Shown piece by piece: positions 43,735-52,391 of a stretch of DNA of 64,000 nucleotides (position 1 is the stretch's first letter; each line of letters starts with the position of its first letter). A program made the translations under genes and the position numbers. The notes beneath the pieces are model-generated. The model was not told the DNA's origin. It saw only the letters and a program-made list of their open reading frames with translations, and searched no databases. Source of the stretch: Pseudomonadota bacterium (GTDB lineage Bacteria > Myxococcota > JACRCW01 > JAFGSX01); assembly GCA_043821645.1 (NCBI GenBank), contig JBDRCO010000072.1:32001-96000 (forward strand). Direction: 5' to 3'.

Positions 43735-44304
43735 TCAGCCCTTGGCCCGTCCTAGGCAGCGCCCGTCGCGGGTATCCACGCGCACCTTCTCGCCGCTGGT
43801 CATGTACTCGGGCACCTGGATCACGATCCCGGTCTCGAGAGTGGCGGGCTTGCTCTGGGAGGTGGCGGTGGCGTTCTTGATCACAGGACCGGTGTCCGCG
43901 ATCGTGAGCTCGACCACCTGGGGCAGCTCGATGGTGAGCACCTGCTCGTTGTAGGTCAGGGCGCGCAGCTGCATGCCGTCGAGCAAATAGCCCACGACGT
44001 CTCCCAGGGTCTCGGCGTCGAGGCTGTACTGATCAAAGGTCTCGCTATCCATGAAGGCGTAGCCATCGCCATCCCGGTACAGGTACTGCACCTCGCGCCT
44101 GTCCACGTCGGCCAGTGCCAGCATGTCCGCGCCACGAAAGCTCTTGGTCAGCACCTGGCTGGTCTTGAGATTGCGCAGCTTGGCCTTGATCAGGGTACTG
44201 GCTCCTCGGGCCGACGGCGTCTGGGTCGTGACTTCGAGCACCAGCCAGGGGGCCTCGTCGAGCTCGAGCACAGCGCTCCGCTTGAGTTCAGTGGCCTGGA
44301 TCAC
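43735..44304 (-). CDS. efpL: Elongation factor P-like protein (EfpL/YeiP type)
   Basis: EF-P fold (QYLY.DG, FMD.ETFDQ, KPATLETG..IQVPEY, VDTR). The loop is PSARGAST, the YeiP/EfpL type, rather than PGKG. GGAGGTG SD. Confidence 0.85.
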   Translation of the reverse strand: MIQATELKRSAVLELDEAPWLVLEVTTQTPSARGASTLIKAKLRNLKTSQVLTKSFRGADMLALADVDRREVQYLYRDGDGYAFMDSETFDQYSLDAETLGDVVGYLLDGMQLRALTYNEQVLTIELPQVVELTIADTGPVIKNATATSQSKPATLETGIVIQVPEYMTSGEKVRVDTRDGRCLGRAKG

Positions 44305-44323: not shown

Positions 44324-44881
44324 TCAGGCTCCGGCCCAGGGCCGGGTCAGGTCGTTCTTGACGCCGAGCAGGTCCAGCACGCGCCCGATGGTGTTGTCGA
44401 CGAGGTCGTCGATGCTTTTGGGCCGGCTGTAGAAGGCAGGCACCGGCGGCATGACGATGCCGCCCATCTCGGTGAGCGAGGTCATCAGGCGCAGGTGCCC
44501 GAGGTGCAGCGGCGTCTCGCGCACCAGGGCGATCAGGTGCCGGCGCTCCTTGAGCGTGATGTCCGCGGCGCGCACGACCAGGTCCTCGGCGTTGCTCGTC
44601 GTCACCGCGGACAGGGTCCGGATCGAGCACGGGGCGATGACCATGGCATCCCAGGCCGTCTGGCCGCTGGCGATGGCCGCACCCACATCCTCGACGTCAT
44701 GCCAGCGGGTGGCTAGCTCGCGCACCCCGTCCAGGCTGTAGTCCGTCTCGATGTGCATCACCCGCGTGGCCGCCTCGGTGACGATGAGATCGGTCTCGAC
44801 ATGGGCCGCCTTGAGCGCGGAGAGTAAACGCACACCGTAGATGGTGCCGGTGGCACCGGTGATGGCAACAACGATCCTCAT
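44324..44881 (-). CDS. ubiX: Flavin prenyltransferase UbiX
   Basis: IVVAITGATG, IASG, APCS, RAAD..LKERR, RETP and PPVPAFY. ATGA overlap with the upstream kinase. Confidence 0.95.
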   Translation of the reverse strand: MRIVVAITGATGTIYGVRLLSALKAAHVETDLIVTEAATRVMHIETDYSLDGVRELATRWHDVEDVGAAIASGQTAWDAMVIAPCSIRTLSAVTTSNAEDLVVRAADITLKERRHLIALVRETPLHLGHLRLMTSLTEMGGIVMPPVPAFYSRPKSIDDLVDNTIGRVLDLLGVKNDLTRPWAGA

Positions 44882-45687
44882 GCTCTCTTCTCCCAGCTGA
44901 CCAAGGTTCCGACGTCTCCACCGGCCAGCGCTTCGGCCACACGACCATCCACGTTGGCGTCGACGATGCGCGCACGCACACCCTTTCGCGTGGCCTGCAG
45001 CAACGCTGCAATCTTGCCCGCCATGCCGCCGGTGACGTCGACGTGGGTGGATCCGCCCAGGCGTGCGGCGACATGCTCCCAGTTGCCACGGTGAATGTGC
45101 GGAATGGGCCGGGTCGAACCATTCTTGGGTACACCCTCGTACACGCCGTCGACGTCGGTGGCATAGACCAGGGTGTCGATCCCCAGACCGGTGGCGGCAT
45201 AGGGTGCGATCTGGTCGCCGGACAGGATGGCGCACCCCTGCTCGGTGTCGATGGCGGGCACGCCGTAGAACATCGGCACACCACCCTGCTCGAGGATGTG
45301 CCGCGCCACCTCCAGGTCCATTTTCTCGAGCACACCGGCGCGCAGCCTTGCTGACGCCGAGGCCTGCAGTGGGATCGCGGGCACGCCCACGCCGATGAAG
45401 ATCGCGGCGACCTCAGCCGCCAGCAGGTACTGCAGGCGCTGGGTCTCGGCCCATGCCACCAGGGCTGAAGGCACCTGGGTACCGCGGTCTATGCCGGTGC
45501 GCTGCACGATGCGGTGCCCGTAGGATCCGGCGCCGTGCACCAGCACCAGCCTGTCCAGGCTCGCGCCCGCGATCTCCTCGGCCAGTCGCCGGACCACCTC
45601 GGTGCGCACACGCAGCTCGTCGCTGCCCTTGTCCGTGACCACCGAACCGCCGAGCTTGACCACTGCGTCGATGACTGTCCGTGCCAT
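44878..45687 (-). CDS. ipk: Isopentenyl phosphate kinase (amino-acid-kinase fold)
   Basis: KLGGSVVTDK, VHGAGSYGH (IPK-type His), ILSGDQI, TDVDGVY and DVTGGMAGK. Start at ATG 45687. Confidence 0.85.
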   Translation of the reverse strand: MARTVIDAVVKLGGSVVTDKGSDELRVRTEVVRRLAEEIAGASLDRLVLVHGAGSYGHRIVQRTGIDRGTQVPSALVAWAETQRLQYLLAAEVAAIFIGVGVPAIPLQASASARLRAGVLEKMDLEVARHILEQGGVPMFYGVPAIDTEQGCAILSGDQIAPYAATGLGIDTLVYATDVDGVYEGVPKNGSTRPIPHIHRGNWEHVAARLGGSTHVDVTGGMAGKIAALLQATRKGVRARIVDANVDGRVAEALAGGDVGTLVSWEKRA

Positions 45688-45769
45688 GGCTGCACCTTGC
45701 CGCCCGTCGCGGGTGGGCGTCAAGCGTGGGCGACGAGGACCATCCGCACTGGCGTCCACGCGATGCGGC

Positions 45770-46798
45770 TCACCAGTCGCCATCGCGCACACGCAGGATC
45801 TTGATCATCTGCACGTACAGCTTCCGCACCGCCGGCACCACCACCGGGTCGTCGTCCTGCAGAGCCTGGCCGAACTTCTGATGATCCAGACACTTGATCG
45901 AATGAACCGTGGCCAGGGTGGGACTCGCCTTCAGGGTGGGCGCACCCTCATCGTACAGATCGAACCACGGCAGCCCGTAGGTGCTGTAGCTGCGCGCGGT
46001 CACCGGCGTCGCGGGCGGCTCCTCGCCGGTGATCTCGCGCCAGCGCTCACTGTTGACGATGTGCACGAAGATACGCGCGCTGTTGTGGGGATCCCAGGTC
46101 TCCACGCCGTGGGGGTCGGGGTAGATCTTCTGGGTCATGCGGCCGCCGGCGGCCAGGCCCATGCCGGCCCCGGCGCTGCGGGCCCGACTGGGAGCCGGGG
46201 CACCACAGGGGGTGGCCTCCTCGCAGTCGCAGGCCATGTCCACCATACCCTCGTAGGGCGCGTGGTCCGGGAAACGACCGGGCCGCGGCTCGTAGACCTG
46301 CAGCTGCATGCCCCCAAAAAGCTCCTGGCCGGTGACCTGACCCTCGACGCTGTAGCCCATGCCCAGGGGCATGGCCACGAACTGCCGGATCACGCCGGGC
46401 GCCACGCAGATGCCGTCGAGCCAGGGCTGCGGCGGCGTCACCAGGTAGTCCTGTGGCGATGTGTGCAGGCTGTCGGACCAGGGCTGACCGGTCAGCGCGC
46501 AGACCTTGCCGATGCCAACCTTCACTGCCCGCGGCTTCCAGTGCGGCGTGCTCAGGCAGATCCACAGGGCCTCGCGCTGGAACATGGGCAAGAACACGCC
46601 GCCGCGGTCGCGCCATTCGGCCGGGACCCTGTCGGCATAGTCCTGCACCCGGCGCAGCGGAAAGGCACCCAGCCCCGGGGGCAGCGGGTAGCGCTTGTCG
46701 TCGTCGGGGATGCGCAGGGTGCGCTGAAAGGTGACGCGGGTGCCGTCGTTGAAGACCAGGCTGTCGTTGTCGATGCGGACCTTGTCGTGGGTGCTCAT
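45770..46798 (-). CDS. Conserved hypothetical soluble protein
   Basis: AGGAGG SD. Motifs FQRTLRIPDD..YPLPPGLG.FPL, GGVFLPM.QREALW, QPWLDG, RQFVAMPLG.GYSVE.Q.TG and MGLAAGG...QKIYPD, recalled as a conserved family of unknown function. Confidence 0.85.
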   Translation of the reverse strand: MSTHDKVRIDNDSLVFNDGTRVTFQRTLRIPDDDKRYPLPPGLGAFPLRRVQDYADRVPAEWRDRGGVFLPMFQREALWICLSTPHWKPRAVKVGIGKVCALTGQPWSDSLHTSPQDYLVTPPQPWLDGICVAPGVIRQFVAMPLGMGYSVEGQVTGQELFGGMQLQVYEPRPGRFPDHAPYEGMVDMACDCEEATPCGAPAPSRARSAGAGMGLAAGGRMTQKIYPDPHGVETWDPHNSARIFVHIVNSERWREITGEEPPATPVTARSYSTYGLPWFDLYDEGAPTLKASPTLATVHSIKCLDHQKFGQALQDDDPVVVPAVRKLYVQMIKILRVRDGDW

Positions 46799-46853
46799 CT
46801 CGTCCTCCTTGTCGGGGTAGACGGGAGCGACCCCCAGGCGTCACGGGCAGCGC

Positions 46854-48014
46854 GTGAGGTCGATGCAACGGCGCGCAAGATCAGGACTATTCGAAAATCG
46901 TCGGCAGCCCGGTGACAGATCCCCGGAGGCGACGTCTAATACCCGGGTGGATTCCAGGTCCGCCACCGAACAGGAGTTCAGGGACTGCCTGGCGCGAGGT
47001 CAGCGCCGGCAAGCCGCCGAGTGGCTGGTGCGCCAGCACGCGGACACCGTGCTCGGGCTGTGCGTGGCCATGGTGCGCGATCGCACCCTGGCCGAGGACC
47101 TGGCACAGGATGCCTACGGCAAGGCATTCAAGAGCCTGGCCGGCTTTCGCGGCGAGGCCTCGGCGCGCACCTGGCTGCTGACCATCGCCCGCAATCGTTG
47201 CCTCGACCACCTGCGCCAGCGCGCACGCGATCCCTGGGGAGGCGTGGCGCCCGAGGTGGACGGCGACCCGGACCAGCACCCGGATCAAGCACCTTTGCCC
47301 TCGGACCTCTTGATGCGACGCGACGACGTGGAGGATGCACTGGCCGAGCTGTGCGAGGGCGATCGCGCCCTGGTGGTGCTGCGCTTTCGCAATGGCCTCG
47401 ACTACGACGAGCTGGCCATGGCCTTCGGACTGCGCGAGGGCACGGTGCGCATGCGGGTGAGCCGGGCCCTGGCGCGCATGCGGCTGGCCCTCGAGCGCAA
47501 GCATGCGGAGCCCGTGGCGGAGCGCGCGGTGCAGGCCGCGCCGAGCCGTGCCCGCATGGCCGCGGTGCCTGCACCACACCAGATGCCCGATGCCCCGCCA
47601 GCCCCCGTGCCCGAGGACAGGCCCCAGGATGGTGTGTCACCCGCGCGCGCCGGGGAGCTGGACTTCTCCGATGAGGACCTGGGTGCACCGGAGGCACAGG
47701 CTGAGGCGGCGTTCGACGACCGTGACGCCGACGGCGCGGCGGCCGACGAGGCGGCGGGGCTGCCTGCGGAGCTCGAGGAACTCGAGGCCTACGACGACGA
47801 GGTCAAGACCGATCGCGAGCTGGCTGTGCCTGCCCCCGCGGCCGCGCCCGCACCGGCGCGTCGGGGCCCCGCCGAGACCCTGGGCGGCACCGCGCTGCCG
47901 CGGCCGTCCTTCCCGGTCGAGCACCCGCTCACCGCCTACTTCGCAGCCACTCGGGGCGCGCCCAGCCAGGGACTGGTGATGCGGCTGCTGGGGGGAGCGC
48001 GCTCGCTGCTGTAG
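46854..48014 (+). CDS. ECF sigma-70 factor with a long acidic/Pro-Ala C-terminal extension
   Basis: Region 2 AEDLAQD...F.G...TWL..IARN.CLD. Region 4 DYDELA..FG..EGTV..R.SRA. Start uncertain (GTG 46947 is plausible). Confidence 0.85.
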   Translation: MRSMQRRARSGLFENRRQPGDRSPEATSNTRVDSRSATEQEFRDCLARGQRRQAAEWLVRQHADTVLGLCVAMVRDRTLAEDLAQDAYGKAFKSLAGFRGEASARTWLLTIARNRCLDHLRQRARDPWGGVAPEVDGDPDQHPDQAPLPSDLLMRRDDVEDALAELCEGDRALVVLRFRNGLDYDELAMAFGLREGTVRMRVSRALARMRLALERKHAEPVAERAVQAAPSRARMAAVPAPHQMPDAPPAPVPEDRPQDGVSPARAGELDFSDEDLGAPEAQAEAAFDDRDADGAAADEAAGLPAELEELEAYDDEVKTDRELAVPAPAAAPAPARRGPAETLGGTALPRPSFPVEHPLTAYFAATRGAPSQGLVMRLLGGARSLL

Positions 48015-48366
48015 GCAGCGCCCCGGGGCACCCTCGTTCGCGCTCGCCCGCAGAACACCACGCGGCCCCGAGGTGCACGCGCACGTCGCGGGCGTTCTCA
48101 CACGGACCCGTCAGGTGGTGAGGTCTCACCCATGGTGCTGGCGCCGGGGCGTTCAGGTGCTACCTAGTTCCCACGCGCTTGCTCGGAGCAACCGGCCGTG
48201 ACCCTGCTGCCCCGCTGGTCGCCTCTACCGCTCGAATCATGTAGAGAGCGGAGTGGCGAGGGGGGTACCGTCCGCCAGGGGCGTGCCACTCGCTGTGCTT
48301 CGACAACTCCGGCGCCGCTGGAACTTCGGTGACGGCGACCGCGGCAGCTGCGGATGGAGGACTCCC

Positions 48367-49686
48367 GTGCGCAAGGTGGTGCTTTACAGCGTCCTGCTGT
48401 TCGTCGGACTGGCGCTGTCCCAGGTCCTGCCGGCGTTGCTGGGCACAGCCCAGGACAGCGTCGCCACGGCGATCCGCGTGCTGACCATGACGGGCCTGGC
48501 CTTCATCATGATCCACGTCGGCTTCGAGTTTCACCTCGACAAGTCGCGGCTCGGCTCCTACGGCTGGGACTACCTGGTGGCCTTCACCGCGGCCTCCTTT
48601 CCCTGGGTGCTGGTGACCGGCTACTTCGTGTTCGTGATGCTGCCGCCCGAGCTGTGGAGCAACTTCGACGCCTGGAAGGAGACCCTCCTGGCCGGCCGCT
48701 TCGCCTCGCCCACCTCGGCGGGGGTGCTGTTCAGCATGCTCGCCGCTGCGGGGCTGGGCGCCACCTGGGTGTTCCGCAAGGCGCGGGTGCTGGCGATCTT
48801 CGACGACCTGGACACCGTGCTGCTGATGATCCCGCTGAAGATGCTCATGGTGGGTCTGGCCTGGCAGCTGGGCCTGATCGTCGTGGTCATGGCTGCCCTG
48901 CTGGCTGTGGCCTACGTCTGGATGCACCGGGTGCGCCTGCCCCTGAGCTGGGGCTGGGTGCTGGGCTATGCCGCGGCGATCGTCGGCATCAGCGAAGTCC
49001 TGTACGCCAGCAGCAAGCTGGTGGACCCGTCGGTGCCCATCCACATCGAGGTGCTGCTGCCCGCCTTCGTGCTCGGCGTCATCGCACGGCCGCGGGAGAC
49101 CGCCCCCGGCGCCGACGCCGCCGGGGTCGAGCACGCGCTGCACGCGCTGCTCGAGCGTCCTGGCGAGCAGCGCGCCACCTCCGTCATCTCGGCCGCCTTC
49201 ATGGTGCTGGTGGGGCTGAGCATGCCTGCCATCCTCGGCGGGCTGGATGGGCAACATCCGCAGCCGGACCCGGCGGTGCTGCACGCCGCGGCCCCCGGCG
49301 CGGTGGTCGACGATCCTGTCCAGCACGGCGGCCCGGCGCCGGGGCAGGCGACCGTGACGGCCAGCCAGCCGAGCCTGGGATGGGGCCTGATCGCCCTGCA
49401 CGTGCTGCTGATCACCCTGCTGAGCAATCTGGGCAAGATGTTCCCCGCCCTGGTCTACCGGCGTGAGGCACACTGGCGCCACCGCCTGGCCGTGGCCGTC
49501 GGCATGTGGCCCCGCGGCGAGGTCGGCGCCGGGGTACTGGTGCTCAGCCTCAGCTACGGCATCGGCGGCCCCGTGGTCACCGTGGCCATGCTCTCGCTGG
49601 CGCTCAACCTGGCGCTCACCGGGGTGTTCATCCTTCTGGTCCGCAAGCTGATCCACGGCGTGCCAGAGGGGCCAGCTGCCGCCTGA
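48367..49686 (+). CDS. Cation/proton antiporter (CPA family)
   Basis: About 12 TM segments. SPTSAGVL, LAIFDDLD, GKM and GMWPRGEVG. GGAGG SD before GTG 48367. Confidence 0.88.
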   Translation: MRKVVLYSVLLFVGLALSQVLPALLGTAQDSVATAIRVLTMTGLAFIMIHVGFEFHLDKSRLGSYGWDYLVAFTAASFPWVLVTGYFVFVMLPPELWSNFDAWKETLLAGRFASPTSAGVLFSMLAAAGLGATWVFRKARVLAIFDDLDTVLLMIPLKMLMVGLAWQLGLIVVVMAALLAVAYVWMHRVRLPLSWGWVLGYAAAIVGISEVLYASSKLVDPSVPIHIEVLLPAFVLGVIARPRETAPGADAAGVEHALHALLERPGEQRATSVISAAFMVLVGLSMPAILGGLDGQHPQPDPAVLHAAAPGAVVDDPVQHGGPAPGQATVTASQPSLGWGLIALHVLLITLLSNLGKMFPALVYRREAHWRHRLAVAVGMWPRGEVGAGVLVLSLSYGIGGPVVTVAMLSLALNLALTGVFILLVRKLIHGVPEGPAAA

Positions 49687-49787
49687 GGCCCGGCTCGGTG
49701 CCGTCCCCTGCGGCGACCTCGACCGGAGACGGTGCCGCCAACCGGACGCAGGTGGCTCGCAGGCCGCCCATTGCATACCCTGAAGGG

Positions 49788-51035
49788 GTGATCGTTCTGT
49801 CTCCAGCCGCCGCCCGGCGCGGCAGGTGCTTCGTCGCCATCCCGCTGTGGCTTGTCGTGGCCTGCCCGGCCGTCCTACCTGGCGCGGATGCGGGCTCACC
49901 GCACCGCGACACGGGCCATGCAGACAGCGGCACGGTGGAGCTTGGATGGGTGGATGTGGCCTCGGGCGTCGACGCCACGACGGAGGAGGATGCGGGACGA
50001 CGCCACGACGCTGCTGTCGGACTCGACAGCGGCACGCCGCCAGACGGCCCTGCGGACGCGGGCCACGGCGACAGCAGCGATGGCGCGACCGCCGGGGATA
50101 TGGAGACGCTCCAGGACGCGTACATCGTCGAGGATGCCGGCCTGGACACTGACGCAGACCCGGGGCCCGATGCCGCAGAGCCGCCCGACGCCGGCTCTAC
50201 CGACGCCCTGATCCTGACCGCGGTCACCCTCAACACCCACAGCTTTCAGGAAGGTCCGGACTCCCTGGCCAAGCTGCAGCAGATCGGCCAGGGCCTGGCG
50301 GCCCTGCAGGCAGACGTGGTGGGCCTCAACGAGGTGATGAGCGGCGAGTTCTGGTCCTACGACTACGGCGGTGCCAGCTACGACGGCACCGCGCTGATCC
50401 AGCAGGAGCTCGAGGACGCCAGCGGCGTGACCTGGTACCACGCTGCGGTCGGCTTCGCTCACTGGAGTAGCGGCGAGCTGATGTCCAACGTGGTGCTGTC
50501 GCGCTATCCCCTTGTCGAGGTCGACAGCCGCGCGTTGACCACCACGGATTTCTGGCCGGCACCCGACGAGCAGCGCAACGCGGTTTACGTGCGCATCGAG
50601 CTGCCCGCGCGCGGTCCGCTCAATCTTTTCGTGACGCACGCCTGGGGCTGGGACTCGGTGGATACCCTGACCCAGATCGCCGAGGTCAAGACCTTCATGG
50701 CCAGCAAGGCCAGGGGCGATGAGGTCCTCGAGCTGCTGCTGGGGGATCTCAACATGCCCTCGACTTATGCAGGCTACGACGCATGGCTCGACGCGCCCCC
50801 CTTTGTGCTCGTCGACACCTCTGCCGTGGCCAACCCGTCCGGTATGGCCGACGCCACGACCGCGGATGAGATGTACCGCATCGACTACGTCCTGGCCCGC
50901 GAGGGTGCTGTGACGAACCAGCAACCGATGCGCCTGCAGTCGTTTCGGTCCTTTGATGGCCTCGAACACCTGGGTCTCACCCTGCCGCAGGTGTCGGACC
51001 ACTACGGCGTGGTCACGGTGTTCGCGCTGGAGTGA
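49788..51035 (+). CDS. Endonuclease/exonuclease/phosphatase (EEP) domain protein, probable lipoprotein
   Basis: TLNTH, GLNEV, LLGDLN, RIDYV and SDHYGV. Lipobox-like LVVAC followed by a DAG-rich linker. Start uncertain. Confidence 0.82.
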   Translation: MIVLSPAAARRGRCFVAIPLWLVVACPAVLPGADAGSPHRDTGHADSGTVELGWVDVASGVDATTEEDAGRRHDAAVGLDSGTPPDGPADAGHGDSSDGATAGDMETLQDAYIVEDAGLDTDADPGPDAAEPPDAGSTDALILTAVTLNTHSFQEGPDSLAKLQQIGQGLAALQADVVGLNEVMSGEFWSYDYGGASYDGTALIQQELEDASGVTWYHAAVGFAHWSSGELMSNVVLSRYPLVEVDSRALTTTDFWPAPDEQRNAVYVRIELPARGPLNLFVTHAWGWDSVDTLTQIAEVKTFMASKARGDEVLELLLGDLNMPSTYAGYDAWLDAPPFVLVDTSAVANPSGMADATTADEMYRIDYVLAREGAVTNQQPMRLQSFRSFDGLEHLGLTLPQVSDHYGVVTVFALE

Positions 51036-51101
51036 ATCGCCGCGGGGCCCGGTGGCGCACTGGCCGAGGTGAACACGGCAGTCCTGGCTGGACCGCGTCG
51101 T

Positions 51102-52391
51102 TCAACGCGGGGGTTCCACCACCGAGAAGTCCTGCGGATCGAAGCCTGCGGGCCGTGTGGCGTCGATGACCCACTTGCTGGTGGTCTCGGTGCGCGGGTC
51201 GCGCGAGGGATCCAGCGACGAGCCGTGGGCGCCGCCGACGATGACCAGGTCGCGGTCGGGTTGCACCCGCGTGGCGATGGCCCACTCCACGGCCACGGGG
51301 TCGTGAATGTCGACATCGCCGTCGACGACGACCACGCGCTTGAGCGACGGATGTGCGGCGAGGGCGGCCAGGCCGGCGTTCTTGCCCTGACCCGCGGCGC
51401 GCTGGTCGATGGACACCACGGCGTGCAGCCAGCCGCACCCGCCCTCGCTGAGCACCACGTCGCGCAGGCCGGCGACGGTGTTCTGCACGATGCGGAAGAT
51501 GCGCGGCTCCTGGGGCACACCCATCAGGATGCGATGCTCGGAGCCTCCGGGCAGGATCACCTGGTAGATGTAATCATCGCGGTGATACAGCCGTTGCACC
51601 TCGAGCACGGGCTGCTGGCGGATGCCGTCGTAGGTGCCGGTGAGGTCGACAAAGGGTCCCTCGTCGGCGAGCTCGCCCGTGAAGCGCGCCTTCCACACCA
51701 TCTCGGCGCCCGCGGGCACCTGCAGTCCGTCGAGGTCGAAGACGTCCAGGGGCTGGCCGAGCAGCGAGGCGGCACAGGCCATCTCGTCGAAGTCGGGGCC
51801 AAAGCTGATGGCCGCAGCGAGCCCGACCGCCGGGTGCAGGCCCACCACCACCGCGACCTCGGCCTGGCCACCTCCCAGCTCCAGGATCTGGTGCAGGTGG
51901 CGGGGCACGATGCGCACGGCAAAGCGGTTTCCGCCCAGGTACATCATGCGGTGATACGACAGGTTCATGCCGAAGGCCGGGTGGCGGGCGCAGATCACGC
52001 AGGCCGAGGCGTACACCCGCTCGCTGCGCGGGTAGAAGCGCATCAAGGGAACCAGGCTGTCGAGCTGCGGCGTGGCATGCTGGTTGGCGAGAAAGGGGGC
52101 GTCGGTGACGACGCGTAGCTCGCCGGGCGTCGAGATCGCGTCGGCCACATGGCGTACCAGCCCTTCGACGCTGCAGTCCAGGGCCCTGGCCAGCAAGGGA
52201 CGGGTGGCTGCGATGTTGGCGAGCACAGGGGTACGATGGCCCTCGAGGTTCTCGAGCAGCACCGCGCGCGATCCGGCGTCGAAGATGCGGCGCGCGGCCT
52301 GGTAGTTCGTGCTCAGGGGCTCCCGCACGCGATCGAGCCAGCCCAGGCTGTCGGCCTGCTGCACGAAGAAGCGAAGATCTGGACTGCTCAT
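51102..52391 (-). CDS. UbiD-family prFMN-dependent decarboxylase, archaeal type (candidate anhydromevalonate phosphate decarboxylase)
   Basis: NLSYHRM, EGPFVDLTGTYD, LPGGSEH, GGCGWLHAVVSI, GKNAGLAALAAHPSLK, VEWAIATR and GSSLDPS. 429 aa. GAGGA SD before ATG 52391. Confidence 0.88.
   Translation of the reverse strand: MSSPDLRFFVQQADSLGWLDRVREPLSTNYQAARRIFDAGSRAVLLENLEGHRTPVLANIAATRPLLARALDCSVEGLVRHVADAISTPGELRVVTDAPFLANQHATPQLDSLVPLMRFYPRSERVYASACVICARHPAFGMNLSYHRMMYLGGNRFAVRIVPRHLHQILELGGGQAEVAVVVGLHPAVGLAAAISFGPDFDEMACAASLLGQPLDVFDLDGLQVPAGAEMVWKARFTGELADEGPFVDLTGTYDGIRQQPVLEVQRLYHRDDYIYQVILPGGSEHRILMGVPQEPRIFRIVQNTVAGLRDVVLSEGGCGWLHAVVSIDQRAAGQGKNAGLAALAAHPSLKRVVVVDGDVDIHDPVAVEWAIATRVQPDRDLVIVGGAHGSSLDPSRDPRTETTSKWVIDATRPAGFDPQDFSVVEPPR

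Follow-up and report, generated by a model that had tools for sequence, protein, structure and literature searches.

A 64,000-nucleotide stretch of contig JBDRCO010000072.1, hereafter the window, carries the gene for an isopentenyl phosphate kinase (ipk, encoding IPK), the flavin prenyltransferase gene ubiX and a gene for a UbiD-family decarboxylase, and the bacterium to which it belongs quite likely makes isopentenyl diphosphate (IPP) by the archaeal mevalonate route. The enzyme activities and the flux are inferred; the basis of this reading is the set of genes, their family assignments, active-site residues and co-occurrence, together with the finding that neither phosphomevalonate kinase (PMK) nor genes of the methylerythritol phosphate (MEP) pathway were found. 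According to the model, mevalonate would be phosphorylated by mevalonate kinase for one ATP, and the resulting mevalonate 5-phosphate would be dehydrated by a two-subunit iron-sulphur (Fe-S) enzyme, aconitase X (AcnX). The dehydration product would be decarboxylated by the window UbiD using prenylated flavin mononucleotide from UbiX, after which isopentenyl phosphate would be phosphorylated by IPK for one ATP and the product isomerised by a type 2 IPP isomerase (IDI-2). The archaeal route is described as consuming 2 ATP rather than 3 per IPP (PMC13198327).

The genome containing the window (G000; 7.07 Mb, 94.7% complete, 3.95% contamination) was compared with one of the same family (G001; 82% complete), two of a sister family (G002, G003) and one of another family of the same phylum (G045). 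The phylum was sampled with 61 genomes, and wider sets held 401 genomes for AcnX and IPK, 346 for UbiD and 400 for a decarboxylase encoded on contig C95. The genes in question are as follows.

Window 44878-45687, minus strand: ipk, isopentenyl phosphate kinase, 269 aa (NF040647, PDB matches, His58)
Window 44324-44881, minus strand: ubiX, flavin prenyltransferase, 185 aa (TIGR00421, 241 bits; single copy)
Window 51102-52391, minus strand: ubiD-family decarboxylase, predicted anhydromevalonate phosphate decarboxylase (AMPD), 429 aa (tree, acnX linkage)
G000:C63:24905-26484: acnL-acnS, two-subunit aconitase X, overlapping genes
G000:C68:60400-62633: hmgR-mvk, HMG-CoA reductase and mevalonate kinase
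G000:C108:21055-22107: idi-2, type 2 IPP isomerase
G000:C95:27781-28791: GHMP-family decarboxylase gene, phosphomevalonate decarboxylase (PMD)-like

Pathway genes in the window and elsewhere in the genome

The initial annotation had noted that ipk and ubiX overlap and that a 429-aa UbiD lies 5.4 kb away on the same strand, and the coordinates confirm this: the ubiX start overlaps the ipk stop (ATGA), and the interval between the ipk start and the ubiD stop is occupied by unrelated genes. Three UbiD motifs, including the quoted GKNA..AA.AAHPSLK and GSSLDPS, start at residues 244, 336 and 390. The description of the host as myxobacteria-like also gained support, by inference: close UbiD homologs are labelled Deltaproteobacteria, Myxococcota, Myxococcales or Polyangiaceae, and the genome's MglA reaches 380 bits with the best-scoring MglA structures and 264 with the next, which we take to be those of M. 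xanthus and Thermus, respectively.

A family-model scan assigned the IPK to NF040647 (175 bits, cut-off 120). Its best PDB matches are IPKs (3LL9, 137 bits, versus 62 for FomA), and the catalytic histidine that serves as an IPK signature (PMC3857490) is present as residue 58, within HGAGSYGH. UbiX exceeded the TIGR00421 cut-off, and UbiD passed the general model TIGR00148 and failed every substrate-specific UbiD model. By tblastn, the genome has one copy each of ubiD, ubiX and ipk, the window gene being its sole ubiD.

The window UbiD is predicted to be an AMPD from its placement in trees and from the genes that accompany its relatives. Its best genome matches are archaeal, at 50-52%. Among the 40 best-match loci, acnL lies beside ubiD at 11 of 18 archaeal and 0 of 22 bacterial loci; among 66 metagenome loci it was present at 40 of the 54 whose UbiD shares the catalytic-loop motif type, at 0 of 7 with other types and at 2 of 5 where the UbiD was a fragment without the motif. 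The protein groups with acnX-linked archaeal UbiDs (SH-aLRT 99 and 100 in two trees) and falls apart from proteobacterial aromatic-acid-type and menaquinone-type UbiDs in both trees, one of which is a quick tree of 84 rows that holds 39 of 119 database homologs and no characterised AMPDs. Labelled members of the supported group in which it stands (37 rows) are Deltaproteobacteria, Pseudomonadota and Polyangiaceae. One homolog at 56% (P0046) carries the JGI label 'anhydromevalonate phosphate decarboxylase', and 13 of the 119 listed homologs lie on contigs equal in length to that of a listed AcnX homolog, one such pair looking coincidental; this is a soft sign of UbiD-AcnX linkage across the group.

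Both AcnX subunits match the archaeal dehydratase 7CNR best, with 310 versus 219 bits for the large subunit and 123 versus 68 bits for the small one, the lower scores being those of hydroxyproline dehydratases. With the list of substrate-binding residues taken from PMC8184944, the large subunit was found to keep all substrate residues (A47, G48, V49, S50, N53, N78, E137, S138, S139, K366 and Y370) and the Cys of all three cluster motifs, and the small subunit keeps STV. The pair is type IIb-like, with the residues predicted to serve mevalonate 5-phosphate and the Fe-S cluster all in place except for one change. HMG-CoA reductase, mevalonate kinase and IPP isomerase score over the cut-offs of TIGR00532, TIGR00549 and TIGR02151. 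A thiolase-domain gene of an archaeal-like subfamily lies near idi-2 (L133:7585-8784, minus strand).

PMK was not found in G000 with TIGR01220, with the PMKs of two sister-family genomes or with a profile of 29 PMK sequences. The GHMP-family matches in the genome are four, namely mvk, an HddA-like sugar kinase, thrB and the C95 decarboxylase. The MEP genes dxr, ispE, ispF, ispG and ispH were likewise not found in G000, dxs and ispD having been checked by short motifs only; as a control on the search, dxr, ispF, ispG and ispH were each detected in 9 to 10 of 14 genomes. A polyprenyl synthase gene stands beside that of a MenA-like prenyltransferase, both products scoring below equivalog cut-offs, and the pair is a likely sink for IPP.

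Distribution, inheritance and a possible link to oxygen

Of the 61 phylum genomes, G000, G001 and G045 are the ones with an AcnX over cut-off, and the same three have an IPK over cut-off and a UbiD at 41% or more. The wider samples yielded AcnX in 5 of 401 genomes (three at 45% or more), IPK over cut-off in 4 of 401 and UbiD in 4 of 346, and no further full carrier, the extra matches being weak or of another type: the AcnX matches of G289 and G369 reach 33-37%, the fourth UbiD (G115) has another motif type, and the fourth IPK (G175) lies, as read by eye, among prenyltransferase-like genes. This last IPK (L217) belongs to a cluster with MfnB-like and prenyltransferase-like genes and no AcnX, perhaps a secondary-metabolite cluster.

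The ipk-ubiX pair is kept in G001, as is the gene order upstream of ubiD, so the module is inherited within the G000/G001 family. The proximity of ubiD to ipk-ubiX is not conserved, the two lying on separate contigs with other neighbours in G001. In G045, where ubiX and ipk also adjoin, ubiD-acnL-acnS-ubiX-ipk form a single gene run; elsewhere in that genome (L134:13624-16913), idi-2 is followed by a fused mevalonate kinase-HMG-CoA reductase gene (mvk-hmgR). A single origin of the G000 and G045 UbiDs was rejected by the approximately unbiased (AU) test (p 0.0002), for which the group was named after inspection of the tree and in which G045 is a long branch; the G045 UbiD thus appears to have been acquired separately.

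The sister family carries an hmgR-mvk homologous to that of G000, but with an mvd-pmk pair. Because this hmgR-mvk, with its class II hmgR, is common to the sister family, we regard it as native in G000. An MVD-family gene over cut-off is present in 39 of the 61 phylum genomes, and neither pmk nor a vertically inherited mvd was found in the G000/G001 family. The signals for a transfer source differ: UbiD points to Nitrososphaeria, and in a FastTree tree of AcnX (computed without G289, G369 and L173) Bathyarchaeia and Micrarchaeota nest among bacterial rows. The nearest homologs with a name come from deltaproteobacteria or myxobacteria and from archaea, the latter being Nitrososphaeria in the case of UbiD and Bathyarchaeia and Micrarchaeota in that of AcnX; no Chloroflexota label occurs among the UbiD and AcnX matches listed.

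Eight of the 120 listed AcnX homologs are single chains with the large subunit preceding the small one (P0257, P0258, P0260, P0261, P0262, P0266, P0279 and P0315), the reverse of the order in the known fused hydroxyproline dehydratase, and one of them is labelled Deltaproteobacteria. On a bacterial metagenome contig of 38% GC (L150:7989-12417), ubiD, a HAD-like phosphatase gene (identified by eye), acnL, acnS and ipk follow one another, and this phosphatase might supply a prenyl monophosphate.

The respiratory genes differ between the families. A COX1-family match was found in 47 of the 61 genomes, with 3 in G002, 6 in G003 and none in G001 or G045. The only match in G000 is partial and at a contig end and, from its motif, is presumably a fragment of a nitric oxide reductase. 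Full-length heme-copper oxidase genes are thus present in the sister family and were not found in the G000/G001 family; G000 has a gene for subunit I of a cytochrome bd-type oxidase. The uncultured host likely avoids oxygen, and the way in which the archaeal module tracks with oxidase content is suggestive. Phosphomevalonate dehydratase (PMDh) is reported to be oxygen-sensitive, and the archaeal route in E. coli to work only near anoxia (PMC10040528). We propose that the native hmgR-mvk was kept while an mvd-pmk pair of the sister-family type was likely replaced by the archaea-related module as heme-copper oxidases were lost, and that the module would since have been split into three places.

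Around the window genes, an elongation factor P (EF-P)-family gene lies directly downstream of ubiX (window 43735-44304, minus strand), a second EF-P being encoded at G000:C43:9080-9793. Just upstream of ipk is a gene for a 342-aa protein with no Pfam match (45770-46798, minus strand), and divergent from it one for an extracytoplasmic function (ECF) sigma factor with a long C-terminal extension (46854-48014, plus strand). A scan for promoters and terminators gave nothing exceeding chance.

A second decarboxylase and the alternative routes

The decarboxylase gene on contig C95 is intact (336 aa). The best structure for its product is 6N0X (295 bits; next family member, 196), named as the PMD of Anaerolinea in PMC9254496. 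The enzyme falls in an Anaerolineae clade, apart from the diphosphomevalonate decarboxylases (DMDs) of its host's relatives, and all five named, organism-labelled homologs among its 119 nearest are Anaerolineae or Chloroflexota. His194 is common to 118 of these 119 homologs, the corresponding residue being Met in all 30 DMDs compared from relatives, out of 38 over cut-off. The family models place it differently: TIGR01240 was passed (242 bits, cut-off 171) and the PMD model NF040704 failed (208 bits, cut-off 475). In the columns that distinguish a PMD by loss of the DMD Lys and an Arg at the Ile27 column, the enzyme has Lys20 and Asn26, versus Asn and Arg in the Anaerolinea PMD, and its residues agree with the DMD-like row tabulated in PMC3857490. 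The Lys is also kept in 53 of its 119 nearest homologs, and Chloroflexota enzymes with dual specificity have been described (PMC11052028). Since Lys20, Asn26 and the DMD-like row leave its substrate uncertain, the enzyme is classed only as PMD-like. It probably acts on mevalonate 5-phosphate, in which case it could give isopentenyl phosphate for one ATP.

No C95-type match above 49% was found in any other of the 400 phylum genomes, and in G001 (82% complete), where the archaeal module is present, no such decarboxylase was found. G000, alone among the genomes searched, has likely gained an Anaerolineae-type decarboxylase, which may provide a second, ATP-costing path through the same IPK. Contamination was considered and rejected as the origin of C95: its tetranucleotide distance ranks 46th of 80 contigs, next to the window's contig at 47th, and in run X1, possibly the sample of origin, the gene and the sequence on either side of it lie on a single 3.4-kb contig of depth 9.6, versus 7-10 for the window, contig depth being a rough measure. 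Runs X2 and X4, from other studies, cover the C95 and window stretches patchily. None of the runs listed as containing these sequences is of RNA, which carries no information about expression. Contig C95 looks native.

Several observations weigh against the archaeal route as the source of IPP. The small AcnX subunit has Phe in place of Leu27 of the archaeal structure, and the tree on which the AMPD prediction draws contains no characterised AMPD. With G000 94.7% and G001 82% complete, pmk could be unassembled. With the PMD-like gene, G000 could in principle do without the archaeal module, and the presence of ispG and ispF in G045 means that carriers need not rely on it. The link to oxygen comes from three genomes, two of them kin. 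Finally, HMG-CoA synthase was not found in G000 or G001, in which no PF01154 match was detected, and the synthases of relatives used as queries found only FabH-like genes in G000; the pathway is accordingly not classed as complete from acetyl-CoA.

The absence of a PF01154 match extends to 22 of the 39 phylum genomes with an MVD-family gene (61-genome sample), which hints that HMG-CoA in this phylum comes from another source. A carboxyltransferase gene near hmgR offers a candidate source in leucine breakdown, other genes of which were not identified.

The presence of the C95 enzyme raises the question of whether flux runs through it and IPK, as in the haloarchaea/Chloroflexi-type route, with acnX, ubiD and ubiX intact but redundant and on the way to being lost. 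The intact gene, its match to 6N0X, the Anaerolineae and Chloroflexota labels of its homologs and His194 favour this explanation, as do the reported oxygen sensitivity of PMDh (PMC10040528) and the cytochrome bd-type oxidase gene. However, the archaeal module occurs in G001 where no C95-type decarboxylase was found (in a genome 82% complete), the archaeal-module genes of G000 are all intact with full active sites, and Lys20, Asn26 and the DMD-like row leave the substrate of C95 in doubt; we consider the explanation unlikely. Lys20, with the TIGR01240 pass and NF040704 failure, would suit a classical route in which C95 is a diphosphomevalonate decarboxylase and pmk is among the roughly 5% of the genome that is missing. 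Yet the C95 gene has no pmk next to it, whereas in G002 and G003 mvd and pmk are paired; its product also stands apart from the DMDs of the host's relatives, and AcnX, the AMPD-like UbiD and IPK would be left unexplained, which makes a classical route very improbable.

A further explanation concerns the window itself. The UbiD could be an HmfF-like (de)carboxylase that acts on an aromatic or furan acid, with IPK supplying or salvaging prenyl phosphate for UbiX. Its best PDB match is 6H6V (223 bits), which we take to be HmfF, and several of its homologs are labelled '2,5-furandicarboxylate decarboxylase 1' by JGI; no PDB match of the UbiD, however, is named as an AMPD. In the trees, the proteobacterial UbiDs at 31-37% branch off as a clade of their own; their motif differs, and none of them is encoded beside acnX. 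Such a reading would explain neither the AcnX pair nor the source of IPP in G001. We give this explanation very little credence. 

The archaeal route thus stays probable, given the AcnX pair, the UbiD clade and the failure to find PMK or MEP genes. That it is the exclusive route does not follow, since with the C95 decarboxylase present it may not be the sole one. The other expectations set out there fared as follows. The AcnX-type dehydratase sought outside the window is present as the type IIb-like pair on C63, and mvk, hmgR and idi-2 were located while hmgS was not; pmk and MEP genes were not found, as anticipated, but an MVD-family decarboxylase, also expected to be missing, is present on C95. 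Neither a complete classical mevalonate (MVA) or MEP pathway nor a position of UbiD outside the AMPD clade was seen: no PMK and no MEP genes were found, and UbiD sits with acnX-linked archaeal UbiDs in a tree without a characterised AMPD. The suggestion that IPK serves UbiX only is unlikely, because no PMK or MEP genes were found and IPK is thus the one step leading to IPP that was detected.

A wider scenario can be offered tentatively, and we hold it to be possible rather than probable. An unreported clade of uncultured, probably anaerobic myxobacteria and other 'deltaproteobacteria' would have swapped the classical lower module for the archaeal one on leaving aerobic respiration, with at least two independent acquisitions in the phylum. 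G000 would run the 2-ATP, oxygen-sensitive archaeal route under anoxia and switch to the 3-ATP decarboxylase of Anaerolineae origin once the dehydratase is damaged by oxygen, both through one IPK and with HMG-CoA from a non-canonical source.

Comparison with known mevalonate pathways

At the level of predicted genes, we regard it as real and well supported that a known pathway occurs in one more bacterial phylum, and in G000 it may run beside a second route. No paper was found that places the archaeal route in myxobacteria or deltaproteobacteria; the trees or supplements of Kanno et al. 2024 may list such genomes. That study reportedly found the archaeal mevalonate pathway in Candidatus Promineifilum breve (Chloroflexota), and the resemblance to the present case, the same pathway in an uncultured bacterium of another phylum, is drawn from its description and not from sequence. 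In its accessible portion, PMC13001223 names only Chloroflexota as bacterial users, and the corresponding portion of PMC8237579 presents myxobacteria as MVA or MEP users, its supplement making no mention of IPK or the dehydratase.

If the reading is correct, a route called nearly archaea-exclusive and so far studied in a single bacterium would also occur in myxobacteria, a group whose mevalonate genes are invoked in the debate on how eukaryotic sterol synthesis arose (PMC8237579). Two sister families that contrast in both lower module and oxidase content would offer a natural test of whether oxygen and ATP cost decide the route. ATP-saving isoprenoid engineering is described as limited by the oxygen sensitivity of the dehydratase (PMC10040528), and candidate parts for it are the PMDh, AMPD and UbiX of high-GC bacteria, among them the single-chain dehydratases that occur naturally in related genomes.

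With the classical myxobacterial route (mvd-pmk), G000 has hmgR, mvk and idi-2 in common, whereas pmk and a vertically inherited mvd were not found. With the haloarchaea/Chloroflexi-type route (PMD and IPK; Roseiflexus castenholzii, Anaerolinea thermophila 6N0X) it shares a C95 enzyme in the Anaerolineae clade, the histidine, IPK and the lack of a detectable PMK, but C95 keeps the DMD residues Lys20 and Asn26 and stands alongside an archaeal module. With the archaeal pathway of Aeropyrum pernix, Methanosarcina mazei and Thermococcus kodakarensis (7CNR/7CNS) it shares the AcnX residues, UbiD, UbiX, IPK, mevalonate kinase and IPP isomerase; it differs in that no HMG-CoA synthase was found, in carrying an extra GHMP decarboxylase, and in being bacterial, with a native class II hmgR-mvk and a module distributed over three places.

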